NCBI RefSeq assembly: GCF_033153115.1
Contig: NW_026889807.1
Span: forward strand, 6,696,001-6,760,000
DNA: 64,000 nt
DNA from: Saccostrea echinata
Lineage: Eukaryota
Direction of reading: 5' to 3'
Shown: piece by piece, positions 4,413 through 51,085 of the stretch
Layout of the letters: each line of letters begins with the position of its first letter
Numbering within the stretch: position 1 is the first letter of the stretch
Program-made: the position numbers and the translations under genes
Notes under the pieces: generated by a model
The model's input: the letters and a program-made list of their open reading frames with translations, nothing else
Database searches by the model: none
What the model was told of the DNA's origin: nothing

Positions 4413-5799
4413 GAAGTGTAAAGTATCCTTAAGTTTCTTTAAATCAACCCTATTGTATCTGTGATATATATTTTAAAAGAGATAAGATACAATATATGGT
4501 TATAGAATCTGCATAGGTGGCATCAGTGATAACATTTGAAGGGTGGAGATAATTAACATAGTAAAATATGTTTAACAGATATAGCACAGTCTCTTGAATT
4601 GCTAAAACATAGCTTGAATTAGCTTTAAGGCTTTTACAGGGCATTCCAAATGCATCGACCAAGCTACTTGAATGCAGTTTTCACAATCATGCTTTATAAT
4701 GAAATCACAAAGAGTCGTAAGTATGTACCCTTTTATATTTGTACAATATGGACTATCAAAAAAATCAAGTCAGCGATTAAACAGTGTTGTTTTTAAACAC
4801 ATTCTAGCAAAAATAATTCCATTGTTTGTGTAACTGTACACCACCTTGTGCGCTGTTGGGTATGGATAAGTATGATTACTTCACATTGTGCCGAATTATT
4901 ATTAATAATTAACTATGAATCAATTTGTTAACCAGAGTTGGCCTTCCTTCTAATCTAAATCACGAAATAACTGTTTTGTCACATTTAGTCCCAAAACTTC
5001 AAGAACTTTGATCGCAAATGCTCAGAAGGAAACACATTTTGAAAAGCTATTTTTTTTCATACAGATTTTCAAAATATTTCCTCATTGAAAATGAGCGCAT
5101 AACCAAACGCGACTTTTAATACTTTATATTGCTCATTTAAGAAAAAGCTGTCTCGATAAGTTATATCAAGCTACATAGCTAATTCACGACCCGTTCAACT
5201 CTTCATCATTCTGAAAAGATTTATGCAGCCATTCCTTTAAGGAATGAAGTGGTTATCGCTCACCACTTACAACACTACATTCTCGATATAATTATTAGCC
5301 CAAACCCTTTAATTTGCTAGCACTCAAGTTTTAAATTTTACTGACATCTTTTGTGTCAGCTTCATTTGAAAAGAAATTCTGATTTTCCTTTGGCCGAGTG
5401 TCTTTCGGGTTGATGATCACTTCTAAACTTACTTTTGTAATGATTATTGATGGTCAGATTCGATGGCTCTTCCGCGTCGCTTATCGATGGTAACACACTT
5501 TTTTTAAGTTGTGCAAACGATTATAGCCCAGTATTTTAACTAATAACAAGAGCCTTTATCTTATTCATGCATGTAAAGTGCAATATAATTTTCAAGATGT
5601 TAGGAATACATAATTACAATTTATACTGTTCCCGCACTTGCAAATGGTCTTGTTAAAAATTCAGTTTAATTGTGTTTGTTCCACAATCATCGAAATAACG
5701 ACAACAAATATAAAAATTTCTTTATACTTTTTTCCTTCAATGCAACGTTTTCTTCTCACTGAAAAGATTTGCAACTTAAAGTATAATAAATTTAGATAC

Positions 5800-5880
5800 A
5801 ATGACGCAAATAAAAATAAGGATAGTTCTGTGTCGGAAGTCAACTTACAATATATAAACTACCACTTACTGCGAATTAAT
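5800..5880 (+). promoter_or_regulatory. Conserved proximal promoter of copy 2 (CGGAAGT 5834-5840, TATATAAA-like element)
   Basis: Homologous to the upstream blocks of copies 1 and 3. Confidence 0.6.
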
Positions 5881-5920
5881 TATACTTTCAATGAACAGTG
5901 TTTACAAAGCTAGATTGGAC

Positions 5921-8900
5921 ATGTTAAGATATTCATTGCTTGTTCTTACATGTATATCTGGTATTACACTTGGTAAGTAGGTATACTTAAAATTCGAAAT
6001 GTTAAAAAAAATATTTAGGATTTTTCCCAGTTTTAAAATGATCTCTTAGAGAAAAAAAAATTAGAATTAGCCATCGGTTAAATTCAATCAAATTTAAGTT
6101 ATTATCTTAAGCGCAGTTACATATTTCCTAGCAATTTTTTTAAATAAACTTGTATTCATCAATATTTATGCACATTGAACGAAATGTGCATCTACTAGAG
6201 TATCATAGATAAACGTAGAATTCATTGGGTTTTACTTCCATAAATTTAGTCAAACTTTTCTGCACAAAAACAGTGATTGATTTTTTTTTTTCAAATTTCG
6301 AACCTTTTAGTCAATAAATTGTATCGTTTAAAAAAAATGTTCGTACGTAGAACATGCTTTTGTGTATCTAATCAGCTGGGAGCCATAAACTCCATATGTA
6401 AGAGATAAAAGTACATTCCTTTGCTAAATAAATAATGGAAGTTGACGATAGAGAAAAAGTTGATCACGCTCATCAAAAAGTCTAGTAAAAAGTCTAGTTG
6501 TTAGTTTTCCGTGAATATTTTTCTCTCTTGAAACATCCAAATATGACACACTGATGTGCCAGACTGTCGAGTGCAATGGAATATATTAAATCAACATGAC
6601 GTGGGAATGAAAATAAATATTTATCGGAATAATTGTTTGTAGGATCAGAATGGTTTTTACCAAAATAAGTTGCAGATGACTATATATTAGATATGCAAAT
6701 TAACGAATTTTATTTATTAATTTATTCATTCATTTTTTTTTTAAGAAGAAGAAGCAATTGCATATTATGTCAAAAAGTCGGGTCTTTAATTTATAATGGG
6801 GAATAGTTGTAAAAAGTCGTACGTTTTGATGCTACTAATTTGGGTAAAATTTTATGCTTTCAAATTTTTCTAAAAGTTTCTTGGGATTTTGAAGTATCTA
6901 CATCTGATTTACAACAGTTCTCAAATACGTTGTTGTAAAGTACTTCCAAAATTTCTCAACTAATGTTTTCGTGAGGAGTTCGAAGAGAATTTTTAAGAAC
7001 CTACTGTGTATCTTTCTTTGTAAGAATTTTATGAAGTTTGGTTTTTTAGTAGTTTGGAATACTTGATAGTTTGGACTGACATATGATTATGAAGACTTTC
7101 CTCCCTAGAATGGGAACTATGAATATAAATTGGATTACGAATTGTAGAATTAAATGCAAGCTCCTCGAAAATATAAATTAATACTGAACCTTACAAACGA
7201 AGTCAATTGTCAGCTGGGACCAGTATATATTGATCGTGTACTCTATCTACAATGTATTTCTTATTTCACTTTCTAATTATTGAATTGAAAATCCGCATTA
7301 ATATAGAACATTTCATATAAGTGCTTCAGGACTATTTCCTGTCGGGATTGACAACTTTTTAAGGAAGTTTCCTCAGATCCATCTGTAATACAATTATTTA
7401 CTGTTCAAGTCGTACAGGAAATCTGTACAGCACATAGGACAAAAGAAACATTTAATCTTGTAAAGGGCACTCCTTTAATATTAGCGATAAACAAAATCTT
7501 TCTTGGAAATAATCATGGTATACAGGTCCTTGCCCGTATTCCTTAAGAAAAATACGTAAATAATACATACCTTATTCTATGTCACACCCTGTATCAGCAC
7601 GAGGAACCAATATCAGCCAGAGGGCCGTTAGCCTAAAAAATATAATAAATATGCAGAATCTGACACATCTGCTTCATATTAAGATATTTTACTGGAAAAG
7701 AACGTTAATGGAAACGTAACAACAAAACTTTATGATACACATGATGACTCAACTTTTCTATCGACAACTTCCCTTATTTATGTAGCAATATACCCTTATC
7801 ACCTGTATATCGAGCTATGTCTACCAGTTGATTCCTTACGCAAGAGCATGCTCTATGTGCGAACAATTTCTAAAACGAGGTAAGTTACTGACAAACAAGT
7901 TGATGAAACAAGGATATCAACAGTCTCTTTTAAAGTCAGCATTTCACAAACTCTATGGTCGATACAATGATCTTGTCAGCAAATACAATCTACCATTAAA
8001 TCGATTGTTGACTGACGTTTTCCCATACAAATTGTTAGGCCATTATTTACACCCTGAATTGTCTACGGATTTTTTCCGTTTTCCCGATCATGACAAGGCG
8101 CACACGGCGGGTGTGACCCTTCGACAGGGGATGCTTACTCATCTATGGCACCTGATCCCACTTCAGATGTTTTTAGAGGTTCTTGTTTGCTCTGCTCCAA
8201 TTTTTTATTGTTTCAATGGACTTTTGAGCTAAAACAAATTTAAGATTTCCAGTACATGTTACAATCAGAATTAATACCATTTATTGTTGAGTGATTTGCA
8301 TGAATTCGTCATTTAAAAAAACTATAACAGCTAATTGTTTTTAATATTGCGATGTCGTCTGCTTAAAAAGCAGTCAATTTAGACCCTTAATACTGATTTC
8401 AACCAATGCAGTGGGGATTATGAACATGCTTCATATCAGAGCCTAGTGCAACATGTACGAGACTAATTTTTTTTTTTTTAAAAAAATCTCATCCCGAGGA
8501 CATGTAATTTTTACCTTTTAATACTAAGGTTTGACGAAGGAAACGGTCTTTTCTGCAGTTTGTATCATAAACGTTAAGGACTCGATAAGAGTTGAGCTCA
8601 ATCCTCTTCACACACTGACACACACCCTCACAGAGACACACAGACACACACATTATTTATTTTATATATATTTCTATAACATTAATATTTTATGTATGAT
8701 AAAATTATAAAATGACAAAATGATTTTTCGAGACACATATACATTGATTTCAATTTGACAACAGATCTTATTCAAAATTAGATTTCAACATTCATTGAAC
8801 TTCAATAAGAGGAGAAAGAACCCTTGTAAAATACAGAGGAACATTTGTATTGTTTTGTATACAACTGAATTTCCTGCCAGTCTCCTCAAAATCTTCCTAG

Positions 8901-12966: not shown

Positions 12967-15899
12967 CAGGTTGGAGAGAATACTCGAAATCGGGTATTAT
13001 CCGTGAAATCGCGTATAGTTCCTGAAATCGGGGTATCGTTGCATCGGGGGGGGGGGGGGGGGGGGGTCACGAATCTATTTTCATGAGTTGATTTTTTTTT
13101 TATCATTTACATATATACATATTTGCAGAATAGCATTCCTTTCATATATATCTTGTACATGTACATGTACCAGTACATATGCTTTACAAAAAGAGAATGA
13201 CAAATAAAGGTAATTTTAAAAAAAAATATTAAAATTTCCTTAGGATTCAACATGCCTCCTACGTTTTAGCAACGACAATGATGTTCTTAGCAACACAGCT
13301 TGTGAGAGAAAATAACTATTGATCGTTTAATTTTGCTGAGTCGGCAATATTTTACCATTTTTCGGCGATTTCGGGGGGTTGTTATTACTGATTACTAGGG
13401 AAAAATTCATTTTTCAATTATTTCTTGTCCGATCGCAACTACTCGGCCCATCTCAGACAAGCAAAAAAACGACTTCGAATGTGTTATGCATGTGTCCAAG
13501 GGACACCCCCTTTCAAAGTAATTTAAAAAATATATATAAAATTTCATTGCAGAGTTTGGTCTAAACGTCATTGAATGTTATATATTCATTGCATGATAAA
13601 GGGGGAAGATCTGTTCAACTAATAAAAATCATTTTCCCTATATTGCCCTTTTGAGTGAATAGAATTCTTCATATCTCCAATACATTCATGCAGTAATTGC
13701 TTATATACCAAACCAATACGAGGTTAAAATAGCACCCTATGATTTTCTACCACGTACGACAAGTATTGAAAATAGCTAAATATAATGATGAAAAGAATAG
13801 AAAAAAGACAGGGAGTTATGAAGTTTTATTTCCATGTCGCGTGACGTACTGTCTAGAAACAACGCGTTTTGTAAAATATTATAATGAGGTATAATAAAGC
13901 GATAACCGTAAACTATACTTCAAAAGGGAAAATCTACCCTGTCTATCCAATATTATAATAAAAAAAGGAAGTGGCTCCAATTTGTATGAAATTTTAATAT
14001 CCGATGAGGAATTACATTCGAAGTTCCATTTCAGTTTGTTCATAATTATTTACAAAATAAGATATGTGAAAACTTTAATATGAAATTCATATTTGAATAT
14101 TAGCTCTATATTGGGAATGTAAAATTAGCACATGAATCCGAATTGGACTTTTTATTTATATGACCCCCCCCCTCCCCCTCCCCCAAGCCAAAAAATCCTT
14201 TCAACATGACTTCTTGCTCTCAATTTCCACACAAACACATACAGGTAAAGTAACGTCGCTTGCATCGATCAAAATGCAAGCAATACATTGAATGTGTCTT
14301 TGAATGAAATTTTCCATGCTAAATTGACATTAATTAGTTTTCTTAAAAACTTAGCGCCTCCTCTTTTCTCGCGGGAATTGCAGGACTGCGCTGCATACAT
14401 ACATCATAGGGAGAACTGATGATTTTACTATATAATCTTTACTTTACCTATATATCAATACATATCTACGGAAGCCCATTTAGGACCTATCAAAAAATAT
14501 TTTTGAATTCGATATAACGAATTGTAAAATTTGTTATAACCAATTTAATTCGTTATAACAGTTTCTTTGAATTCGTTATAACGAATTTAATCTGTTATGA
14601 TAAATTTGTTGAATTCGTTATAACGAATTGAAAAATTCGAATTCTAATTTTAACGAATTAAATTCGTTAAAATGTATTCTTTAATTTGTTATAACGAATT
14701 AAATTTGTTAGAACGAATTCGACAAATCGTTATATCGAATTCATATATATTTTTCTACAGGCCCTGATTGTTGAATTTGATTAAACGAATTTAATTCCTT
14801 GTAACAAATTTTAGAATTCGTTCAAACGAATTCAATTTGTTATAGCAAATTTTAGAATTCGTTTAAACGAATTTAATTTGTTATAACAAATTTCAGAATT
14901 TGTTTTAACGAATTTAATTCGTTATAACCAATTTTTGAATTCGTTATAATGAATTCAACAAATTTGTTATAACAGATTAAATTCGTTATAACGAATTCAA
15001 ATAAACTGTTATAACGAATTAAATTTGTTATAACAAATTCAACAATTCGTTATATCGAATTCAAAAATATTTTTTAATAGGTCCTATATGGGCTTCCGTA
15101 CATATGACAGCGTTAGTCGTTAAATTTCTTCAAAGTTTTACATTTTCTGAATAATGCGCGAATTAGGAAATTAAGCTTGAGGAATAATTTATTGGGAAAT
15201 AAACACAAACGACATGTAGTTATTTGTTTTTAGAAATTAAACACTTTATATATTTTAAAAATCTATTTAAGTACATGTACATATTAAAATTTGTTTCATA
15301 TTATATCATTTTTCGACCTTTCCCATATGTTCCTTTTTTTTTTTTAAAACATTTATTTTATTTTCCCCTTACGATAACGTCGGCTTTCTATATCGATGAG
15401 AAATACTTACCAACTGAGGAATAATGTTAATTTAACGTGAAAGGGGCGCCATACTTTTCTAAGTAAAAATAACATAACACTGCGTTAGTCGTTAAATTTC
15501 TACAAAGTTTTACATTTTGTGAATAATACATGAGTTAGGAAATTAAGCTTGCGGAATAATATATTGGGAAATAAACACAAACAACATGTAATTTTTTATT
15601 TTTAGAAATTGTATTGAAAAATAATGACGCTACCGTGTCTTCTGTGCTACCCCAGCAGTGTTTGTCGTGTGATTTTAAACTTGTCAACAGCCACATAAAT
15701 TGGATTCAATAAAAATAAATCCCCAAGATACTGATGTACATGTAACAGTAACTGACATTATGCGCCGTTGTTTAAATTTTTTGCTGTTACAGAAAGTTGC
15801 ACGGGATACCCGATTTCGCGGATTCAACGATACCCTGATATCGGGGACTATACGCGATTTGACGGATAATACCCGATTTCGAGTATTCTCTCCAGCCTG
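12967..15899. mobile_element. Non-autonomous TIR DNA transposon, CAGG termini, probable 5-bp TSD
   Basis: ~80-bp TIR CAGGTTGGAGAGAATACTCGAAATCGGGTATTATCCG / CGGATAATACCCGATTTCGAGTATTCTCTCCAGCCTG; flanks TGGGG/TGGGA. Internal ~130-bp direct repeat at ~15110 and ~15483. Confidence 0.8.
14469..15098. mobile_element. TA-flanked MITE filled with palindromic TTCGTTATAACGAA satellite units
   Basis: TIR CGGAAGCCCAT.TAGGACCTAT / ATAGGTCCTATATGGGCTTCCG, TA on both sides, ~20-22-bp internal units. Confidence 0.85.
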
Positions 15900-16299: not shown

Positions 16300-17140
16300 G
16301 AAATTTCCTGAAATTTTCCCAAAACAATATGCAGTAGAGCCCCATGAATCCTGGATTTTTTTTCTGCCGCGGGTTTCAAACATACACTTTATCATCAATA
16401 TTTAAATCAGGTTCGAATGCTTTACTGTCGTTGTTGGACTTTATGTATTCTGCCATCATGGATGTACGGACACTGCCTTTATCGAACGTATACTTTAGTC
16501 GGTCTGATCCATTCATCGGTAGACATCTGATCGACATCATCACTGTCTAAGGATCCAAGTAAGAAATCGATGGGTATTTTCGAATTACGTCCAAACATAA
16601 GATAAAATGGGCTGTATCCGGCTGATGAATTCTGTATAGAGTTGTACAAAAAAAGTAATTCTGGAAATTGTTTCGCCTAATGTCGCTTAAGTTCAGTTGT
16701 AAGAGCCTTTAATAAAGTTGTGCAGAGTTCTGTTAAATCTTTCACTGAGCGTTTCCCTCAGGATGATAAGGAGTGGTGTGAGATCGCGTAATTCCATACA
16801 TCTTACACAGTTCAGCAATGGCGTTTGCTTCAAAATTTCGGCCTTGATCTGGAACACCATACTTGTAGAACCATTCATTTGGAAGACTTTCGCAACAGTA
16901 TCCGCTTTCTGGTCCTTCGTCGCAACGGCTTGAGTAAATTTTGTAAAGACATCAGTCATCAGAAGGACGTTTTCTTTACCATGCCTGGTTCCAAAACGGT
17001 AAAGTCGATCGCGAGAATTTGCATGCGATGAGATAATTCATTGTAGTGCGTACAGCTGGTTGAGGCATCTTGGAAATTACACAACGTTCACAACGCTTAC
17101 AATAATCCTTCACAGAGTTGAAAATTCCAGGCAAATATAT
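16300..17140 (-). mobile_element. Gypsy LTR-retrotransposon integrase relic
   Basis: Minus-strand [50 protein letters not shown] and SPFYLMFGR motifs, with frameshifts. Confidence 0.85.
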
Positions 17141-17157
17141 AAATATAAACAATAAAT

Positions 17158-17464
17158 TAAATCAGTTATTATTATTTACAAATGATAATATCCTTTATGT
17201 GACGGAGATAAAGAAACTGTATTTGTTTTATTTGTTTTAATTTAATTTTGATGTGACATGATTGTATTTTGGTAATTGTTGTAATTTTGTTTGGTGTTTA
17301 CAAACTATTTATCTCGGGATCAATTGCCTATTTTTGATCGATGACACCATTGTCTTAATATACAGCCAATCAGCGTGGCTTCTCCCAATCACGTGACCAT
17401 TGTTTATTTATTTACCAGAGGAAAAAGCCACGCTAAATTGCAAGGGAAAATTTTGTCGAAAAAA
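17158..17464 (+). repeat. Split direct repeat A1
   Basis: 307 bp, nearly identical to 24055-24361 (two substitutions seen). Confidence 0.95.
17363..17398 (+). promoter_or_regulatory. Probable internal Pol II promoter in repeat A: two CCAAT boxes plus E-box TCACGTGA
   Basis: AGCCAATCAGCGTGGCTTCTCCCAATCACGTGACC. Confidence 0.55.
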
Positions 17465-17616
17465 AACGCATTTCCAGTTGGTTCTACGTAAATTATGTAG
17501 TGCTACAGTTTCCGTCCCTTGCTGTGATCATTTATTAACGTGAAGTGCCAGATATTTCACAACAGGAAAGGAGTTTCACTACATTTTTCAGTAAGTGACT
17601 TGAGTTTGTTTATGTA

Positions 17617-18279
17617 ATGGTGCGCGATCCGGTTTGGAGAGAACTGTGTCACAACATGGACGAGCCGAATTTACTCAGAATCTGTTTACTTGGACATTCT
17701 TTCGTGACTCGTTTACGGCGGTATATGGACTCACATCCTGATTTAGTGAATTTAAAGCTACACCATAGACTTTATAGTGTTTCAGTGCGGGCTCGTGGTG
17801 GTTTACGGATCTCTAGCATTGCTCGTTCCAGAGACTTGTTGACTTTTGATGTGTTGCCACACATATGCTTCATGCAGATTGGGGAGAATGACATTCTGTT
17901 GAATAGTGACGAAGTGATTGTGCGTGATATTTTATCATTAGCGTCTTATCTGCATTCGGGTGTGGGCATACGAACAGTCATTGTAGGCCAGCTTCTACGC
18001 CGCCAGCCTTGGGCTTCGTCTTCGGACTTCAACGATCGCATCGTCGCCATCAACGTTATGCTAAAAGAACAGTGTGCAGCTATGAACGGTGTACATTTCT
18101 GGCCTCATAGAGGCTTCTGGGAAGACTTGACATTCCTGTGCCATGACGGGGTACATCTCCGATGCCCTACCCCATCTCCTCTTGTTGTGACCGCCTCTCC
18201 TATGCATCGTTTTTGGCGAAGTGTTCGCTCAGCTATCTTACATCATAGACACATTTCAGGCCAGTATCATTCTGCTTAA
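17617..18279 (+). CDS. SGNH/GDSL-family hydrolase ORF of the Ngaro element (220 aa)
   Basis: Block I LLGHSF, block II RGG, block III QIGEND, block V DGVH; uninterrupted ORF. Confidence 0.85.
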   Translation: MVRDPVWRELCHNMDEPNLLRICLLGHSFVTRLRRYMDSHPDLVNLKLHHRLYSVSVRARGGLRISSIARSRDLLTFDVLPHICFMQIGENDILLNSDEVIVRDILSLASYLHSGVGIRTVIVGQLLRRQPWASSSDFNDRIVAINVMLKEQCAAMNGVHFWPHRGFWEDLTFLCHDGVHLRCPTPSPLVVTASPMHRFWRSVRSAILHHRHISGQYHSA

Positions 18280-18640
18280 GTCTGCTTGTCTGACCTTGTT
18301 TTTCAATTGCTTTACATATATATGACCATATTCTGTAACTAAGTACATTCAGGGATGTATTTCAATATAAATGTTCTATTTAAATAATGCACCTCCATAT
18401 TCTGAGACCATAACTATGGTCTACTTAAGTCATTGAGTGCATGCATCACATTCTGTCATAGGCTTTAATGTCAAATGCTTTATGTGTTTCATCAAACTTA
18501 CTGATGATTATTAGACATTCAGTTTGTTTTTTGTGGTCAATGAACAACATAAATACAGCTTACATAAACTTTATTGGAGTAGGCATTTATTAACTCCTAT
18601 ATGTTTGACTGGTTTATATACTTTGTAAGCAATTTCTCTT

Positions 18641-19150
18641 TGTATTGTGGGACCATACACATTACATAATGCTTACGGTTGATGTTGCGGGACCATACGC
18701 TTCATCTTGTATGAGTATATAATTGTATGTGCATTTTCTTTTGGTGCGGGACCATACCACCAAAGACATGCTCATTTGGTTGTTGTATTGTGGGACCATA
18801 CACCTTACACAACTGTTTTCATGACCGTACTCCAATTCGCAGTCTGTTGTTGTTTGATGTTGCGGGACCATACGCATTATCATTTTATGACTGTACATGA
18901 ATTGGTAGTTTGTTTTTGTTAGATGTTGTGGGAACATATGCAATATCATCATACTATGAAAGATATACTATATTACATTCCATATGCATTTTTCTTTAGT
19001 GCAGGATCATGTGCACCTTATCTGTACTATTTCAATATTTATTCTGGTGGTGATTCATCCACATAAGACACTACTGTTTACTCGACAGTATTTTTATACA
19101 CTCTATAAAATATGGTTATATATTCAACTGTTGCGGGACCACACACAACA
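18641..19150 (+). repeat. Array of 8 stem-loops with 8-nt GGACCATA-type loops
   Basis: Hairpins at 18641-18666, 18681-18706, 18737-18766, 18779-18813, 18855-18882, 18922-18947, 18999-19016 and 19129-19150. Stem sequences differ but stay paired. Confidence 0.85.
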
Positions 19151-19554
19151 TCCTTGTAATCATCATATGTACATACAATATATTTCACTAAGGTATGGCT
19201 TCAGGTCTTTGTAACCTTCTAATTTGTTTAACTAGCTGAAAATTTTAAATCTTAAAATTGGGTCAGACAAGCTTCAGATTCTCCTTTGGTGTTGTTCTGT
19301 TTTCAGCTACTTTTCAGGTATAATGATAAAAATTGTATAAAAATTTATACCTCATTCTTTAGCCATAATCTGTATTATGTAGCATTGAGGCTGTATATGT
19401 TTATTTTGTGTCCAAGGCTATATATATACATATACATGTGTATATAAATATTTATATATCTGTGTTTCTACTGAGCCCTTTGGGACATTTCAGTATCATT
19501 CAATGAATAATTATTAATTGTGTTCATTATGCTTTATTGTCCAGGTGTACAGCC

Positions 19555-20637
19555 ATGCCTCCAAAGAGGGGACAGAAGTCCTCAGGTGCTACAACAGCCA
19601 AAAAGCGAAGGGCAGTCCAACCGACAGAAGGAAGTCAAGCCATATCACTAGACCTGCCGCCTGTGGGACCACCTGCTCAAAACAATGGACTCACAAACAT
19701 TGACTATGACAAATTAGCTGTGGCAATTCTAAAGCACTCACAAGGGCACAATGGGCTAAACGTTCCAACTCAGGAGGCCCCTTCAGTGCCAGGACCTACG
19801 TCCCACTCAGCTGACACATCACCAAAACCTACAGCAGATCCACAACCACCTTCAGTTCCAGGTCCTTCATCTCTGCAACCAACAAACAGTGTGTCAAGTT
19901 CAACGCCATTGTTGGGGGATCTGTTAGATCAAGTTTTTGCAGGTGAGCCAGCAAGGGCAACTGATCTTCCTTACTCATCTACTATTGTTAGTGATGGCAT
20001 TCCCCTTTGGTCTTCAGTTTCTAGCAAACTTAAGACAAAAATTTGGAATAATGAATTCATTGACTTTCGATCCCTACAAAATACAAGGGAAGAACCTTTG
20101 AGTGTTTCGATTTCCACTGGGGTCATAAAATTGCACCAAAGTCCAAAATTCAAAAGCCCCATAAGTATTTCCCAATGGACAGATGCTTTCTTTTTGTTTG
20201 CAGCAGTGTACATTGAAAAGTACCCTGCTGAAGCCCCCAATCTTTTAAAGTATGGGCACATGGTAAGGGAAATTCAACAACTTCATGGGGACAATGCATT
20301 TCGTTCATATGATGAGCAGTTTCGAAAGTTAAAAGAAACTGTTAATGTACCTTGGCAGCAACCTATTCAGGAATTAAGGCTGAGGGCAGCCACACTCTCA
20401 AAAGCTTTCCCTCCCAAACAATCACAGAATAATCAAACCCAGCCCTTTCGCATCAAGTTTTGTTTTCAATACAACAGAGGGGAACGTTGTAGTAAAAACC
20501 CCTGTCCCTTTCGTCACATCTGCATGCAATGCAGAGGAAACCATCCCAAGTCCAAATGCACAGATTCTTCCAAGCCCAGTATGCAGAATTCACACTCAAG
20601 AACTCCCAACTCCAATCAAAGTAAAAAATCTGCTTGA
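19555..20637 (+). CDS. gag: Ngaro gag-like ORF1 with C-terminal CCCH and C-x2-C-x3-H-x4-C zinc fingers
   Basis: GCCATG start MPPKRGQK, Pro/Ser-rich linker, KIWNNEFIDF and W..AF..F motifs, CFQYNRGERCSKNPCPFRHICMQCRGNHPKSKC. Confidence 0.85.
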   Translation: MPPKRGQKSSGATTAKKRRAVQPTEGSQAISLDLPPVGPPAQNNGLTNIDYDKLAVAILKHSQGHNGLNVPTQEAPSVPGPTSHSADTSPKPTADPQPPSVPGPSSLQPTNSVSSSTPLLGDLLDQVFAGEPARATDLPYSSTIVSDGIPLWSSVSSKLKTKIWNNEFIDFRSLQNTREEPLSVSISTGVIKLHQSPKFKSPISISQWTDAFFLFAAVYIEKYPAEAPNLLKYGHMVREIQQLHGDNAFRSYDEQFRKLKETVNVPWQQPIQELRLRAATLSKAFPPKQSQNNQTQPFRIKFCFQYNRGERCSKNPCPFRHICMQCRGNHPKSKCTDSSKPSMQNSHSRTPNSNQSKKSA

Positions 20638-22177
20638 AATCCTGCAAGCTTATGACAAAGACAAACTTTTAGTTATCAAAAATGGATTCACCTATGGTTT
20701 TCACTTAGGTTGTAGTGGTATACCAAGCTCAAAAATATCTAGGAATCATAAAAGTGCACTTGAACATAGTTCTGTTATACAGGAATTCATTAATAGTGGT
20801 ATTGAATCAGGGAGAATAGCTGTACCCTTCCCCTCTACACCATTTTCCCAGTTTGTATCTTCTCCTTTAGGAGTTGTTCCTAAATCAGACCCTGGTAAAT
20901 TCCGAGTTATACACGATCTCTCTTTTCCAAAACATAATTCAGTCAACTTTATGATCCCTGAAGAAAATTCAAAAGTGAAATATGACTCTTTAGATGTTGT
21001 AACAGACCTACTTAGAAAATTTGGTCGCGGTGCATTGATGGCTAAGACAGACATTCAGGATGCTTTCCGCATAATTCCAATTCATCCTGATGATTACAAA
21101 CTCTTAGGATTTTCTTGGGACAGTAGGTTCTTCTATGATAAGTGTCTACCAATGGGTGCGAGTAGTTCGTATCAGATCTTTGAACGCCTTAGTAGTAGTT
21201 TGCAGTGGGCAATGTGTGAAAAATTTTCTGCTTCCGGAATGTCTCATATGTTAGACGATTTTTTCTTTATCGGGCCCAAGGGTTCTACTAAATGTCAAGC
21301 TGATCTTGAAAGATTCTTGTCTATTTGTGCAAAATCAGGCATACCCATCAAAGAGGAAAAAACAGTTTTTCCTACTACCGTATTAACCATATATGGGATT
21401 GAGATTGACTCGAATACATTGGTATGTCGTTTGCCTGAATCTAAACTAAACAAAGTCAGGGACAGTTTACAAGCAGCAAAACGTAGAAAGAAAATTACTT
21501 TACATAACCTACAATCTTTGATAGGATTGTTAAATTTCGCTTGTTTAGTTGTTGTTCCAGGTCGAACCTTTTTGCGTCGCCTCATTGATTTAACATGTGG
21601 GGTCTCCAACCCTAATCATTTCATCCGCCTAACTTGTGAGGCAAGAGCGGACTTGCATATGTGGTCACATTTTGTAGAATCTTATAATGGCAGGTCAGTT
21701 ATACTTCCTGATGTTTGGTCATCTTCCGATAAAGAATTGTTATTTACTGACGCATCAGGCTCATTGGGTTTTGCGGCAGTTTTGGGGACCAACTGGTTTG
21801 CATTAAGTTGGGAGGAAGTTCTAGATTTAGCACAATACCAGATAGCCATTAAAGAGTTGTTACCCATTGTGTTAGCACTGGAAATCTGGGGTCCTGCTTT
21901 AGCCAACAAAAAGCTCCTATTCATGACCGACAACATGGCCATAGTACATGCCATTAATAAACAGACTTGTAAAGACAAAATTCTCATGAATTTGATTCGC
22001 AGATTAGTTCTAACAGCACTTTCACACAACATCCTTTTCAAAGCTAAACATATTCCAGGCAAAACAAATACTCTGGCAGATCATCTTTCATGATTTAAAT
22101 TGCAGGAAGCCTTCCAGATAGCCCCTCATCTCAGTCCTGTACAGACAGAAGTTCCCAAGGACCTCTTAACAATTTGA
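20384..22177 (+). CDS. pol: Ngaro pol (RT + RNase H), no initiating AUG, one premature TGA at 22091-22093
   Basis: Frame is open from 20384: TPIK..NGF..NHKSA..GRIA.PF..SPLGVVPK..FRVIHDLS, KTDIQDAFR, LPMG, MLDDF, FTDASG, TDN. ADHLS* continues in frame as FKLQEAF..LLTI* to 22177. Confidence 0.88.
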
Positions 22178-23082
22178 ATCCAGTCTGCATGAAACTACTA
22201 GAATCTGCTCTCTCATCATCAACCTCAAAAGTTTATCGCCGAAGTTGGAATTTGCTCCTCAAATGGAAACCTGACATATCACTTCCAGTCTCAGTGACAG
22301 ATGTTTGTAACTTCATAGGCCATTTATTTCTTCAAAATTACTCACCCAGTACAATTTTTTCCCACATTTCAGCTATCAGTTTCATTCACAAGTTATGTAG
22401 TATCTCAGACCCTACTCAAGCCTTTGTGACCAAAAAAATTCTTAAAGGGTGTCAAGCTGTAGGCTCAAGGAGGGACACACGCCTGCCTATCACAGCAACT
22501 ATCTTACAGAAACTCATTGCAGCCTTAGAACACACTGTGTCTCAGTATTCACTCAGACTTCTTTTGCAAGCACTTTTCTTGGTAGCCTTTCATGCTTTTC
22601 TGAGATTAGGGGAAATAACAGCGAAATCAGTTAAAGCTACGAATTGTATTTTACAGAGGTCTGACATCACATTCAAACAGGAAAACGCTTTGTTAGAGGG
22701 AGTTCAAATAATTATGAGGGATTATAAAACGAATAAACACCATGCTCCAATAATCATTTTCCTTCAAGCATGTCCCAGTTCCTTATACTGTCCAGTTAAG
22801 GCGTTGCATAAGTATCTTGCCTTGTACAAACATACATCCGGGCCATTGTTCCAGACCATGGATGGCTTGCCAATTACATACTCGGTTGCTACTTCACATC
22901 TCAAAGCAGCAATTCAGTTTATTGGACTAAGTCCGGATCAATTTAAAGGTCACAGTTTCAGAATTGGGGCAGCAACACATGCAGCCTCACTTGGTTTTTC
23001 AGACAATGTCATTCAAAAACTGGGAAGGTGGAATTCCGATGCTTTTAAGCACTACATTCGTATTAAGTCCTTTCATCTATAA
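22174..23082 (+). CDS. Tyrosine recombinase (first ATG 22189)
   Basis: Catalytic motifs FLRLGE (R), YKTN (K), HSFRIG (H-x-x-R), GRW and HYIR (Y); intact. Confidence 0.93.
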   Translation: MNPVCMKLLESALSSSTSKVYRRSWNLLLKWKPDISLPVSVTDVCNFIGHLFLQNYSPSTIFSHISAISFIHKLCSISDPTQAFVTKKILKGCQAVGSRRDTRLPITATILQKLIAALEHTVSQYSLRLLLQALFLVAFHAFLRLGEITAKSVKATNCILQRSDITFKQENALLEGVQIIMRDYKTNKHHAPIIIFLQACPSSLYCPVKALHKYLALYKHTSGPLFQTMDGLPITYSVATSHLKAAIQFIGLSPDQFKGHSFRIGAATHAASLGFSDNVIQKLGRWNSDAFKHYIRIKSFHL

Positions 23083-23161
23083 GTAATTGACATGCTCAAA
23101 TTTTTAGTGCATACCCCGGTGTAGCCCCCCAAAACATACATATGTGTAAGAAAAACTTTTA

Positions 23162-23409
23162 GACAGGTCAGAAGTTTTCTGCTGTCACAAATAACCACAT
23201 AGACTTTGTAGGGCAGGACAGAAGTTATCTGCTGCCCTTTATCAAGCATTTGTATATAGGAGACAGGTCAGAAGTTTTCTGCTGTCTTTCAATCCCTGGT
23301 CAGATCCTGTTCCATACACATATTTTTGGGTACACGGCAGGTCAGAAGTTTTCTGCTGCCTGAAAGTTATTGTTTTCAACATGTCAGGTCAGAAGTCTTC
23401 TGCTGACAT
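23162..23409 (+). repeat. Array of 5 bulged hairpins, core CAG-GT-CAGAAGTTTTCTG-CTG
   Basis: Copies at 23162-23186, 23210-23238, 23259-23289, 23336-23360 and 23381-23409, with covarying outer stems. Confidence 0.88.
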
Positions 23410-23562
23410 AATTTTCTATCTCCCTATGTTTGTACATAACATTATTGGTAAAAACTTTTTTTTTAGGGCATATTGAACATAGCTATCTTGCTGGCCACCA
23501 CATGCTCTAATGTCAAATAACAAAATGTCTTCAATAGAACTATTTTTTATTAGCTAGTGTTG

Positions 23563-23566
<4 letters not shown>

Positions 23567-23630
<64 letters not shown>
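23567..23630. repeat. (TA)n microsatellite in the element 3' region
   Basis: Direct reading. Confidence 0.95.
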
Positions 23631-23634
<4 letters not shown>

Positions 23635-23761
23635 ATATTTATTTAATTTTTTGTTGTTATGACATATACTTTAACATGTATCATGAGCATTTGTCTCCTT
23701 TTTATTTTGCGCCTTGCCAAGTCGCCTTGGGTGGGTGGATCCAATTTGCAATTGGATTGTG

Positions 23762-24059
23762 GCGTTCATTTTGTTTTATCCCACCCTTTTTTGATGGCAC
23801 GCATATCAGTGCCTGCTTTATGGTATGTTTATTTTAAAGGGGGTCAGTTTGCATAATATGATGCCAAAGATTTTTGTGTTCTTAGAAGTTTTTCTAGTCT
23901 CTCTGACTCCCTTACTATGTGTATTTTTGTTTTGCGTCATTTACTTAAATAAATGACATTTTTTCACTTTCAACACTGTTGTTATTTTCTTCTATCCATC
24001 AAAAAACTAGCTCAGTTGACTTGGCTTCAGACTTGCAACAATAACAAAGGAACATAAAT
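23762..24059 (+). repeat. Split direct repeat B1
   Basis: 298 bp; matches 24450-24747 (one substitution seen). Confidence 0.95.
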
Positions 24060-24361
24060 CAGTTATTATTATTTACAAATGATAATATCCTTTATGTGAC
24101 GGAGATAAAGAAACTGTATTTGTTTTATTTGTTTTAATTTAATTTTGATGTGACATGATTGTATTTTGGTAATTGTTGTAATTTTGTTTGATGTTTACAA
24201 ACTATTTATCTCGGGATCAATTGCCTATTTTTAATCGATGACACCATTGTCTTAATATACAGCCAATCAGCGTGGCTTCTCCCAATCACGTGACCATTGT
24301 TTATTTATTTACCAGAGGAAAAAGCCACGCTAAATTGCAAGGGAAAATTTTGTCGAAAAAA
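24055..24361 (+). repeat. Split direct repeat A2
   Basis: Copy of A1, joined to B1 through TAAAT. Confidence 0.95.
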
Positions 24362-24449
24362 CCCTCCATCCATCCCCTTTCTTCCACCGTCTTTTTTTTT
24401 TTTTATTATTATTATTATTGTTATTCATGTATTAGAGATCATACTTTGC

Positions 24450-24747
24450 GCGTTCATTTTGTTTTATCCCACCCTTTTTTGATGGCACGCATATCAGTGC
24501 CTGCTTTATGGTATGTTTATTTTAAAGGGGGTCAGTTTGCATAATATGATGCCAAAGATTTTTGTGTTCTTAGAAGTTTTTCTAGTCTCTCTGACCCCCT
24601 TACTATGTGTATTTTTGTTTTGCGTCATTTACTTAAATAAATGACATTTTTTCACTTTCAACACTGTTGTTATTTTCTTCTATCCATCAAAAAACTAGCT
24701 CAGTTGACTTGGCTTCAGACTTGCAACAATAACAAAGGAACATAAAT
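24450..24747 (+). repeat. Split direct repeat B2
   Basis: Copy of B1; ends the element. Confidence 0.95.
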
Positions 24748-24870
24748 ATCTTTCTTTCTTTGTTAGTACGAGAATTAACGTCGCAGCTATTGCAGAAAAA
24801 AATTCTGCAACAGCTGTGACATTGATTCCCGTACTAACAACCAAAGAAAGCATTTTATTGTTTAAATATA
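24748..24870. mobile_element. Short palindromic non-autonomous element interrupted by the Ngaro insertion
   Basis: CTTTCTTT..TTGTTAGTACGAGAATT..TGCAGAA / TTCTGCA..CCCGTACTAACAACCAAAGAAAG. The missing left tip TAAACAATAAA lies at ~17146-17156. Confidence 0.6.
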
Positions 24871-24949
24871 ATAATTGCGACCTTTGTTAAGAATTTCTTT
24901 AATAATCCCAATTTTGTCCAACTTTCTAACTAATGTTCAACCACAGCTT

Positions 24950-26620
24950 TTGGAAATTTTTCTGATTTCAAATTTTGTTGGTTTATATCCTTCATCAAAA
25001 ATCTTCAGAAATGTTGCTGTTTGAATCAGCTGATTGAAGAGACTGCATATATCTCGTCGAGCTTAAGAAACGGATTAGTGTCGTAAACTTCATTTACAAT
25101 TACACTCGATGCACTTTGTTTCTGTAGATCCGAAGGCAGTTTTCTACAGTCGGAGAACTTCTCTGGTAGAATCTCTAAATCACTATGCCGCGATGCATCA
25201 TCAAGATCACTGAGACATTAAAGATCATCCGCAGTTTCGTGATGACGGCCTAGTCGGAGCTTCACATCAAAGTTAAACATCGCTAATTTCGAAAGCCATC
25301 GTTGTTAAATTGCACTGAGTTTTGATATTTTAAGATGACACAACGGGTTGTTATCAGTGAACACCGTGAATTTTGATCCTAGCTATTTATTAGTAGTCCT
25401 TGAACGTCTCTGTTATGGCCTTGGTTAACGACAGTAATTCCAACTTTCGAGAACTATAGTTTTGCATGTTCCTTTCACTTGGTCTTAAGGATCTGCTAGC
25501 GTAGGCGATGACATGTTAGTTTCCTTCTTTGACTTGCGATAGACCGACTCCTAAACCTAGCATACTAGCTTCTGTTTCAAGAAAAAATGCCTTTTGGAAA
25601 TCTGCATATCCTAAGATAGGAGAACTCACAAGGAGCTTTTTTAATTTAATAAACTCAGTGTCATCACACTGAGATTTTCATTTATTTCCAAACGGTTTCT
25701 TTGGATAAGGTGTAAATGGCGATGCTATATTACTAAATCCTTTCACAAAACGTCTGTAGTATCCAGCCCAAGGAATGACTTGAGTTTTTTCACATTTTTT
25801 TTTACAGTCGGTTTTTCAAAATTCTGCTCAGCACTGATTTTATTTCAGGGTAAGTTTTACATGTAATTCCCTCTGAAGATATAACATGTCCGAGATAATG
25901 AACTTCACTTTGACAAAAAAACATGCACTTTGACAATTTTTAGTTTTGAAGAAAAAATATTGCACTAACATTTTTAATTTTAATCCATTTTGCGGATGAT
26001 TCTAAACACATTTTCTGGTCGCTTCAATGTTCTGAAATATCTTCTGAAAATACAATAATATAATCCAAAACACTAGTAAAATGTTAAATATTTCATCCCT
26101 AAAGGTCTGTTTCATAACCCTTTGAAACGTTGCCGGGGCTTTTTACAATCCAAACGACATACGCAGATATTCATACAGAACCATGGGCATTGTTAATGCT
26201 GTTTTCTCGATATCATCTTCATGGACAGCTACTTGGTTATACCCACAGGGGAGATCAGTTGTCGAGAAAAATTTAGCACCGCATAGAGCGTCAAATGCTT
26301 CTTCTTATCTAGGTAGTGGATAGGCATCTTAGTGAGTTTTGCTATTTAGTTTAAGATAGTCCACACATAAGCGGACTGAATTATCTTTCCGACTAACACA
26401 ATCGATGATGCGTACGGACTGGTACTCTCCCTTAAAATATTATTGTTCATGTGATTTCACTTCCTTGCATTGTGATAGAGGTATTCGTGTAAAAGGTAAA
26501 GATAACGAACAGTGATTGATCTGTCTGTAGGGTTGCACTATTGGCTGATCGTCTGTTGTTCGAATAGTACGTTTTATGGCTGACGTATAGCCTGTGCCAT
26601 CATCGTTCTAAAAATGCAAA
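24950..26620 (-). mobile_element. Gypsy RT/RNase H relic (probably the same element as the integrase at 16300-17140)
   Basis: Minus-strand VRLCVDY..LN, DAYPLPR, GAKFFST.DL..GY.QV, KTA, APATFQR, SPILGYADF, IAYASRSL and TDNNPL motifs, with stops. Confidence 0.85.
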
Positions 26621-50109: not shown

Positions 50110-51085
50110 CTAGGCGGTCAGGGTTGGAGCTCCTTGCTCTTGTTGTGCTACTCTTGCGTAACTCTGAGTCACTTGGGCGGATTCAGGAGGTGCGATGTAT
50201 TTAACTCCATTTATGAAGAGAGTGTCTCGAACTAGCTTTACACGTTTGTGGTCGAGTTTTGCTTGGCGCACGACTGGATACAGTTTTTTTCTCCTATTCT
50301 CGATCTCTTGGGGAAATTGTTCGTTCACCTACACATTCGTTCCATGTAATCTTCTGGCTGCGTTTTGACGGATGTACTCCCTATCCTTATAGTAGGTAAA
50401 TTTGGCTACTATATTTCTAGGCCACTCGCTGAATTCATTTGCTCTGCCCATTCTGTGCACTCGCTCGAAAGGAATGTCATAATCAAGCCTGAATCTCCGA
50501 CGCATTAGGTTCTGAATCACAGCCTCTGTATCCTCATCCTGGTCCTCTGGGATCCCTGAGAATACCAAGTTATCCCGCATTGATCTGGCTTTGAGATCCG
50601 TCACAGATTCTTCTAGTCTTTCCTTGGCTTCTTTTAACGCTTGGACATCTGATGTCAATTTTTCTTCTAATGTTTTCTGAGTAACTGTATACTCGTCCAG
50701 GTTTTTCTTGACATAATCAACGGTCTTTTTATTTTTGTCTGCTGTTTCTTTCACCGAGTCAAACACATTACCTAATGCGCTCACATTAGTTTCAAGCTGT
50801 CCAAAATCATTTCTAATCTTTTTCACATCAGTGTCAAACTTTGAAGAGGATGATTTAAGTTCACTTATTGATGTCTGTATAGTCTCTAATGAGGTCATTC
50901 TTTTTTCAATTTTACACAATCGTGTCTCAAACCTTTCATTTTTTTACTTCAATATTCGATAGTTTTGAATCCATCTGAGTAACTAATGTATGAATGGTTG
51001 ACAGTGAGATTTCGCCCTCATTAGATTGCCCAAAAAGTACAGTACGGCTCTGTGCCAGGATCTCTGAAGTTTCAGTCGCAGACAT
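50110..51085 (-). pseudogene. LINE ORF1 (coiled coil + RRM-like), disrupted
   Basis: MSATETSEIL.., coiled coil, ARSMRDNLVFSGIPE, RVHRMG..PRNIVAKF, NEQFP; frameshift near 50945 and stop at 50329. Confidence 0.8.

Follow-up and report, generated by a model that had tools for sequence, protein, structure and literature searches.

Eight hairpins with one octaloop in a Ngaro retrotransposon of Saccostrea echinata: a probable RNA signal in an unusual spliced lineage

The Ngaro type of tyrosine-recombinase (YR) retrotransposon is recognised by a plan of split repeats that runs A1-ORFs-B1-A2-B2 (PMC9210276, PMC8547959, PMC3783388). An N6-adenine methyltransferase domain has been found in DIRS-like and PAT-like elements; how elements of the DIRS order replicate is described as poorly understood, and no primer has been identified (PMC7192593). 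Packaging of RNA has been proposed as a role of the CH-box that YR elements carry (PMC6681497). The function of the SGNH proteins of DIRS-order elements has been called unproven (PMC9210276), and the esterase of ZfL2-1 ORF1p binds phospholipids and not oligo-(A) RNA (PMC3905857). Signals by which an element knows its own RNA are described from other groups. For example, Gag picks unspliced over spliced retroviral RNA (PMC5035971), the Gag of RSV meets unspliced RNA in the nucleus (PMC7157774), and LINE proteins recognise the loop of their own hairpin, not that of a relative (PMC4176376). The titles, abstract openings and passages of the Ngaro/DIRS literature that were searched describe no RNA arrays or spliced recombinase expression. 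Likewise, a literature text search for the loop word described below gave no paper related by title among the matches listed.

A complete Ngaro-type element lies on the plus strand of the window, by which is meant the whole 64-kb stretch of DNA that was analysed (Table 1). Its parts follow the order A1-SGNH-spacer-gag-RT/RH-YR-B1-A2-B2, with the gag-like, reverse transcriptase (RT)/RNase H and tyrosine recombinase ORFs in Ngaro order, and TAAAT is present at the left end, at the B1/A2 junction and at the right end. The near-identity of A1 with A2 and of B1 with B2 implies that the element is recent; no second copy is present within the window. For an N6-adenine methyltransferase, no Dam match at E 0.01 was found in the four ORFs. 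Over 176 aa the RT matches, at 43% identity, a newt protein model in which RT is followed by SGNH. The RT frame stops shortly past RNase H in this element as well as in its distant relative L001 (see below), the stop in the window (22091-22093) being in frame and 27 codons short of the tail end in relatives. Since the frame is +1 to gag and no Met precedes the conserved LPTP in the window or in L001, a frameshift or a further splice would be needed for its expression. The motifs read in the recombinase are RLGE, HSFRIG and YIR.

Table 1. Positions of the element and its parts in the window; a slash in a splice site marks the exon-intron boundary.
Feature	Position	Strand	Remarks
Complete Ngaro-type tyrosine-recombinase retrotransposon	17158..24747	+	split direct repeats, ORFs
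Repeat A1	17158..17464	+	99.3% to A2 (305/307 nt, 2 differences)
Candidate donor TCA/GTAAGT	17588..17596	+	first intron base 17591; predicted; 5' of SGNH start
SGNH esterase-like ORF	17656..18279	+	207 aa; intact catalytic motifs; precedes gag
Candidate weak GC-type donor CAG/GCCAGT	18257..18265	+	first base 18260; predicted; end of SGNH ORF
Short perfect inverted repeat	18405..18422	+	loop-like word and its complement; self-folding, z -3.96
Hairpin 1	18641..18666	+	loop GGACCAUA from 18650; U-U mismatch
Hairpin 2	18681..18706	+	loop GGACCAUA from 18690; 2x2 U loop
Hairpin 3	18740..18764	+	loop GGACCAUA from 18749; bulged C
Hairpin 4	18784..18809	+	loop GGACCAUA from 18793; 2x2 pyrimidine loop
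Hairpin 5	18855..18882	+	loop GGACCAUA from 18865; U-U mismatch
Hairpin 6	18922..18947	+	loop GGAACAUA from 18931; weak in context
Hairpin 7	18999..19016	+	loop GGAUCAUG from 19004; weak in context; overlaps best-scoring acceptor-like site (AG end 19004)
Hairpin 8	19129..19150	+	loop GGACCACA from 19136; C-A mismatch; weak in context
Donor-like site AAG/GTATGG (19193)	19190..19198	+	best-scoring donor; would make array exonic if used
Candidate acceptor TTGTCCAG/G	19522..19545	+	last intron base 19544; 10 nt before gag ATG
gag-like ORF	19555..20637	+	360 aa; basic NLS-like N-terminus, helical core, CCCH and CCHC zinc fingers
Splice donor CAG/GTGAGC (19943)	19940..19948	+	gives 454-aa Gag(1-130)-YR fusion
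RT/RNase H frame	20384..22093	+	Pfam RVT_1 E 5.4e-10, RT_RNaseH E 0.0019; +1 to gag
Splice acceptor TTGCAG/GAAG	22094..22109	+	last intron base 22105; fronts recombinase
Tyrosine recombinase frame	22099..23082	+	R...HxxR...Y; Pfam Phage_integrase E 8.1e-07
Second array, five hairpins	23159..23409	+	CAG-GW(bulge)-CAGA[AGUYW]UCUG-CUG; covarying outer stems
Repeat B1	23762..24059	+	99.7% to B2 (297/298 nt)
Repeat A2	24055..24361	+	split direct repeat with A1
Repeat B2	24450..24747	+	88-nt unique spacer parts A2 and B2

Some further observations concern the ends of the element and the rest of the window. Where B1 begins there is a GGGTGGG...CCCACCC stem (23729-23786), and a similar one occurs towards the 3' end of L001 (6286-6347; 15/17 nt match, E 0.26; fold z -1.25 and -1.56). 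The G-rich arm of the stem at B1 could also pair with a pyrimidine run just past A2 (24362-24376). A 56-nt inverted repeat (82%) directly at the right end (24742-24858) yields sub-threshold miRNA-like Rfam matches; it may be a small MITE or the site into which the element inserted. The word at the SGNH end (18251-18272) comes back at 19485-19501, some 55 nt upstream of the gag acceptor, with the middle 5 bases missing; within the window ACATTTCAG has 4 occurrences and CAGTATCATTC has 2. Rfam, searched at E up to 5 over 17000-25000, gave 17 matches that are all below the gathering score, and a U6 identity for the region of hairpin 7, suggested by a weak minus-strand match (22 of 44 bits), was discarded. 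The scan for bacterial promoters and terminators stayed at chance level and is not relevant here. Left of the element, a short minus-strand frame (16693-17037) looks by eye like a DDE-integrase fragment and has no Pfam match. Elsewhere the minus strand carries a 773-aa RING/B-box (TRIM-like) ORF (40086-42407) and a broken non-LTR retrotransposon with a coiled-coil ORF upstream (46471-50943; RVT_1 E 8.7e-29), and satellite-like tandem arrays are seen at 14499-15061 and 60691-61314 (period 21-42, partly palindromic; periods 148 and 111).

The protein encoded in front of gag belongs to a large family (3192 clusters at 50% identity, E up to 0.001). Among 37 sequences, G13-H14-S15, G76/N78 and D164-G165-H167 are invariant, and so are the basic residues R19, R116 and H151. 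It has no Pfam match; its structure model (pLDDT 93.8) leads to a fold search topped by SGNH hydrolases (best E 1.2e-07), and the single PDB sequence match is 4C1B, the ZfL2-1 ORF1p esterase, at E 0.4. The order SGNH before gag is also seen in a Mytilus gene model. Longer SGNH forms account for 2 matches among the 8000 candidates scored, and SGNH and Gag stand in one protein in 2/259, both of them gene-model joins. As for Gag, the finger residues C303, C312, C317, H321, C323, H330 and C335 are invariant in 21 sequences, none of which (0/21) has a Pfam match. The best fold match of its model (pLDDT 62.9) is to unrelated helical proteins (Z 6.0, rmsd 4.1, 79 aligned); by this model a capsid fold is neither found nor excluded, and a match so weak is no evidence of a new fold. 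The atlas neighbours of Gag are unnamed proteins of fungi and molluscs, and a RefSeq protein of Saccostrea echinata is 99% identical over its N-terminus.

A scan of a genome collection yielded one locus (L001) from 113 candidate stretches. This contig, 6415 nt long, is catalogued under a bacterial genome bin and is most likely contaminating animal DNA. Its order is SGNH, a spacer of 1033 nt, gag, RT/RH and YR, with reading-frame offsets as in the window, and its SGNH, gag, RT/RH and YR products are 32, 30, 49 and 44% identical to those of the window. A blastn comparison of its non-coding parts with the window produced nothing beyond short matches (E no better than 0.2). A near-perfect hairpin of about 19 pairs (-19.5 kcal/mol) is seen in its spacer at 800-847, ending at a strong donor-like site (842).

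Splicing to the recombinase is recorded in the proteins of relatives. The join of donor 19943 to acceptor 22105 gives a junction peptide that matches P0105 at 20/20 and P0116 at 17/20 positions, while the join of an alternative donor (ATG/GTAAGG at 20263) to the same acceptor, which links a longer Gag to the RT tail, gives the junction of P0094 and P0095 at 20/20. The spliced joins of these four database proteins (P0105, P0094 and P0095 are RefSeq models) are hence reproduced at canonical sites of the window. P0116 is a Gag-YR protein of 470 aa, and since its longest contig, 2433 nt, is too short for 470 codons together with a 2163-nt intron, it would have come from a spliced molecule. L001 has an acceptor of the same kind (TTTCAG/GAAGCC), which with the matching donor gives an in-frame Gag-YR fusion of 445 aa. 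To judge from these sequences, the Ngaro family of this element does express its recombinase in relatives as a spliced Gag fusion, and donor 19943 explains the near-invariant Gly130 of Gag.

A second intron, predicted from candidate sites, would span the region between the SGNH gene and gag. By a home-made matrix, donor 17591 ranks third among the donors scored in 17158-19700, and 19544 fourth among the acceptors; the GC-type donor 18260, beside which lies an alternative GT donor at 18264, falls outside the 14 best-scoring donors. Against an intron over the octaloop array described below, the best-scoring donor (19193) is downstream of that array and the best-scoring acceptor (19004) falls inside hairpin 7. 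Among SGNH homologues, C-termini of the types RPV (15/58) and GQ (8/58) read the same donor-site bases in two frames, such endings being a minority (29/145) in a wider set. In L001 the donor at the SGNH end (CAG/GTAATT) is the best-scoring one, and the gag acceptor (TTTCAG/A) lies one base before the gag ATG. The upstream translations FRLIM and FPGLTM, from the only two of 19 database Gag homologues that are translated upstream of the start, fit YAG/R before gag, so that YAG/R stands just before gag in the window, in L001 and in both homologues with upstream translation. If the donor at the SGNH end is spliced to the gag acceptor, the two elements show the same out-of-frame overlap (236 and 224 aa), a coincidence with a chance of one in three. 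Moreover, 35 ATGs lie between the SGNH stop and the gag start, which makes it implausible that ribosomes scan from the full-length RNA to gag. Either join, 17591 or 18260 to 19544, removes all eight hairpins described next, and the spacer bearing them is probably removed from the messages that make protein.

The octaloop array occupies 510 nt (18641-19150) of this 1.3-kb spacer, which reaches from the SGNH gene to the probable splice acceptor before gag; it begins 360 nt past the SGNH stop, leaves 400 nt up to gag and is 5.6 kb away from the 3' end of the element. All eight hairpins that the earlier note had listed are present, and each folds on its own with the 8-nt loop open. The pattern GGA-N-CA-Y-R has 8 matches in the spacer (18280-19545), and 8/8 close a hairpin of -4 kcal/mol or better. 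Dinucleotide shuffles of the spacer (2000) held on average 0.21 matches, with a maximum of 3, and 0.004 hairpins, with a maximum of 1, a comparison that overstates significance since the pattern was derived from the same data. Outside the element, none of 17 matches forms the hairpin (both strands, 56,300 nt). Two motif-blind tests of the spacer differ in outcome: 6 hairpins share a 5-mer against a mean of 3.6 and a maximum of 5 in 25 shuffles, whereas the 4-mer test gave 9 hairpins, below the shuffle maximum of 11. Pairwise identity among the copies is 0.88 in the loop, 0.64 in the 5' stem and 0.46 in the 3' stem, and it drops to 0.39 and 0.30 in the flanks, against a background of 0.29; the spacers are no more alike than background. 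Loop positions G1, G2, A3, C5 and A6 and, in the 5' arm, U-7, U-4 and G-3 are invariant; the base directly after the GGA varies (C in 6, A, U), whereas the next C and A are constant. Hairpins 1/4 and 2/5 are 93% identical over 28-30 nt. A covariance model of the eight hairpins found no ninth copy in the window or L001 (70,415 nt), its next match scoring 13.5 bits against 30-42 for the members. Loop-loop kissing between octaloops reaches -5.1 kcal/mol at best, with a mismatch, and is unpersuasive.

The stems vary in a manner that suggests selection on pairing. In an ungapped alignment of the eight rows, compared with 500 shuffles, the covariation score is 0.433 against 0.227 +/- 0.048 (reached in 0/500) and 14 stem cells are changed on both sides (0/500), while the 6 pairs with two-sided change (35/500) and the 11 further pair types (76/500) are not significant; since the copies are related, these figures are not probabilities. 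The earlier note had read compensatory changes as structural selection, and that reading stands on the score and the two-sided cells but not on the other two counts. In local context, hairpins 1-5 keep the loop open with a probability of 0.79-0.94 against a background mean of 0.06, and hairpins 6-8 are weak (0.33, 0.10, 0.21). In a global fold the closing pair has a probability of 0.04-0.08 for hairpins 6-8, and hairpins 2 and 4 fall to 0.31 and 0.39. With regard to strand, the genes lie on plus, the RNA energy prefers plus in 6/8 hairpins (7 and 8 are more stable on minus), and the array region has a folding z of -1.76 on plus and -0.51 on minus; hence the array most likely acts as plus-strand RNA, as had been proposed. 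The G-U pairs that had been adduced for the same strand carry little weight, as the 71 stem cells hold 4 of them on plus, and 3 A-C cells become G-U on minus. The proposal that an upstream complement of the loop acts as a switch fared differently in its two halves. The complement does lie in an inverted repeat of its own, which folds (Table 1). However, 6/7 of its bases (TATGGTC) pair with their own arm at 0.82-1.0 in the global fold, and none pairs with an array loop above 0.03, pseudoknots being outside the model. Although the word would pair with a free loop at -10.5 kcal/mol, compared with -7.4 kcal/mol in its own stem, the switch is not supported. Taken together, the array is very probably a selected RNA structure of the element. 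The earlier interpretation had seen this repeated, selected structure and missed the context that decides its meaning, namely the Ngaro element, its splicing and a second array.

This second array stands 3' of the recombinase gene. Its covariation is 0.217 against 0.082 (10/500 shuffles), with 6 two-sided cells (3/500). L001 likewise has five hairpins in its 3' region, of the type CG-YA-CAGCU[4 nt]GGCUG-CG, within 5445-6240. The two 3' arrays share a shape, with a 2-nt 5' bulge and a CAG...CUG upper stem; alignment of their sequences failed, both the sequence and the loops being different. In the spacer of L001 no octaloop array was detected: 0/2 pattern matches fold, the covariance model has no match, and a motif-blind loop test found nothing above shuffles, though this test is weak and missed the 3' array of L001 itself. 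Hairpin arrays thus recur in this group with family-specific loops, and the 5' array is seen in 1/2 elements.

The reading that we favour, at a probability of roughly 40%, is that the array is a multivalent cis tag on the unspliced genomic RNA, read by the zinc-finger Gag of the element. The element would make one full-length RNA from A1 to B2 together with spliced RNAs. Splicing to the acceptor before gag would give the Gag/RT message, and a second splice the NLS-bearing Gag(1-130)-recombinase fusion. As the splice from 17591 or 18260 would remove the array, the unspliced RNA alone would keep the octaloops, and this RNA would be both the SGNH message and the sole template that regenerates a complete element. 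Both terminal repeats would be present on spliced as well as unspliced RNAs, yet a copy of a spliced RNA would be without SGNH or RT; a mark confined to the intron would solve this. Eight stems could present one open loop to many copies of one protein. The likeliest candidate is the nuclear Gag that the element itself encodes, with its CCCH/CCHC fingers, in parallel to the selection of unspliced RNA by retroviral Gag; bound Gag may hold the intron in, export the RNA and/or select it for reverse transcription. The family-specific loops fit a cognate reader, as for the LINE stem-loops. Against a Gag tag, the fusion to the recombinase is enough to account for the basic N-terminus of Gag, and L001, having the same layout without the octaloops, implies that the tag is not universal. 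The array-bearing element is also a sample of one.

The position of the array would serve equally well if the reader were an oyster RNA-binding protein, which is possible, though unlikely. Such a protein might act in export, in intron retention, against NMD, or as an m6A writer or reader at GGAC; starting 360 nt past the SGNH stop, the array might then resemble a CTE and let an intron-bearing SGNH message with a 6-kb 3' tail be exported and survive. The earlier note had pointed to the m6A consensus DRACH, and the word does occur in 7/8 loops; however, the C needed after the methylated A is the loop position that varies, whereas C5 and A6 do not, and DRACH occurs 26 times in the spacer, so that the m6A link is doubtful. 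The gamma-CTE word AAGACA (PMC7551171) occurs twice in the array region, but outside the repeated loops. Moreover, a host reader would be expected to impose one motif across relatives, and L001 is without octaloops.

A more doubtful reading has the reverse transcriptase of the element bind its own hairpins, in the manner of the proteins of L2 LINEs. Mobility of UnaL2 depends on the GGAUA loop, the U-U mismatch and the bulged C of its hairpin (PMC1636434). The octaloops also start with GGA, 7/71 of their stem cells are U-U, and hairpin 3 has a bulged C. But LINE hairpins are single and lie at the 3' end, where synthesis starts, while the octaloops are eight and 5.6 kb away; for that role the 3' array, being present in both elements, is the better candidate.

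If transcription began at an internal promoter, or if donor 19193 were used, the array would instead be exonic and could control the translation of gag or the localisation of the RNA. This donor is the best in the region and could be joined to acceptors at 19306, 19317 or 19544; the many upstream ATGs of the spacer, and the 400 nt between the array and gag, make such a leader function improbable.

Comparably improbable is the absence of any RNA signal, the array then consisting either of decayed local duplications of a small inverted repeat or of hairpins in single-stranded cDNA. The cDNA of DIRS-1 is single-stranded (PMC7192593), the near-identity within the pairs 1/4 and 2/5 betrays related copies, the G-U asymmetry is nil, and the last two hairpins are stabler on the minus strand. 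However, identity at background just outside the stems is not expected of longer duplicated units that decay neutrally, the stems change on both sides, and folded as DNA, the hairpins have little stability (-1.7 to -5.0 kcal/mol). The smallest probability falls to autoregulation, in which the SGNH protein would bind the array as a 3' segment of the message that encodes it, in a manner resembling the OSK-like RNA binding of Oskar: the array does lie directly 3' of the SGNH gene, and the protein has the invariant basic residues named above.

A bolder extension of the Gag tag, unlikely as a whole, is that bivalve Ngaro elements run a programme like that of a complex retrovirus. Gag, RT and the NLS-Gag-recombinase would be made first, from spliced RNAs, and the octaloops would then gate the full-length RNA: nuclear Gag would load on the intronic loops, block a deliberately weak donor and so release the full-length RNA, which would be the genome and also the message for a membrane-binding SGNH protein (matrix- or envelope-like). 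Donor 18264 might additionally allow an SGNH-Gag fusion, 566 aa in frame. The loops of the 5' and 3' arrays would be fast-evolving self-recognition codes that differ between families.

With RNA targets that are short, repeated and mutable, and with splice coordinates that are exact, the element makes three questions accessible to simple assays: how a YR element expresses its recombinase, here by way of a spliced Gag fusion, how the RNA to be copied is chosen, and when the SGNH protein is made. The size of the SGNH family implies that the layout may be widespread. If array and Gag are cognate, a natural eight-fold loop array with a small zinc-finger reader would be available as an RNA tag of the MS2 kind.

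The loops of CsrB and RsmZ follow the pattern CA-N-GGA-N-G, and the MS2/R17 operator is an ANYA tetraloop with a bulged A two pairs below. The arrays of both kinds likewise present many hairpins with one short loop, and this is the likeness the earlier note had in mind. As to the first, 0/8 octaloops fit the pattern (its one match, at 18350, lies outside the array), there is no Rfam match and the host is an animal, so that membership was rejected. The ANYA loop is resembled by the octaloop core A-N-C-A in 8/8 cases if G1 pairs with R8 and G2 with Y7; this tetraloop reading is compatible with the variation (position 7 is U or C), yet the energy model does not favour the closure (G2-Y7 pairing 0.01 or less) and no bulged A is present, for which reasons the operator was rejected as well. 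The array moreover belongs to an animal retroelement and acts, if at all, in cis rather than as a free small RNA, with the GGA at the edge of the loop.

Among Ngaro-like elements of the order DIRS, Xenopus DIRS-53_XT likewise has split repeats, gag, RT/RH, YR and an SGNH ORF (PMC9210276), and the absence of a methyltransferase match is a further point in common with this group. In the amphibian Ngaro elements, SGNH comes after YR, whereas in the window and L001 it stands before gag and is followed by a spacer of 1.0-1.3 kb. The passages on Ngaro that were searched make no mention of this order and spacer, of a spliced Gag-YR fusion or of two hairpin arrays. By analogy, the retroviral psi and the Rev/Rec response elements are structured cis elements through which an element-coded nuclear protein distinguishes unspliced from spliced RNA, as the array is proposed to do (PMC5035971, PMC7157774, PMC7551171). 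They form one compact folded domain, in contrast to eight small hairpins spread over 510 nt behind an extra ORF, and the array, for which Gag is the putative binder, has no sequence match in Rfam. The 3' stem-loops of L2-clade LINEs (UnaL2, ZfL2-1, ZfL2-2) share with the octaloop hairpins a loop that starts with GGA, a U-U mismatch or bulged C, and a loop specific to the element (PMC1636434, PMC4176376). The L2 LINE, however, has a single 3'-terminal loop of five bases that serves ORF2p in target-primed synthesis, whereas the YR element carries eight octaloops in its interior.
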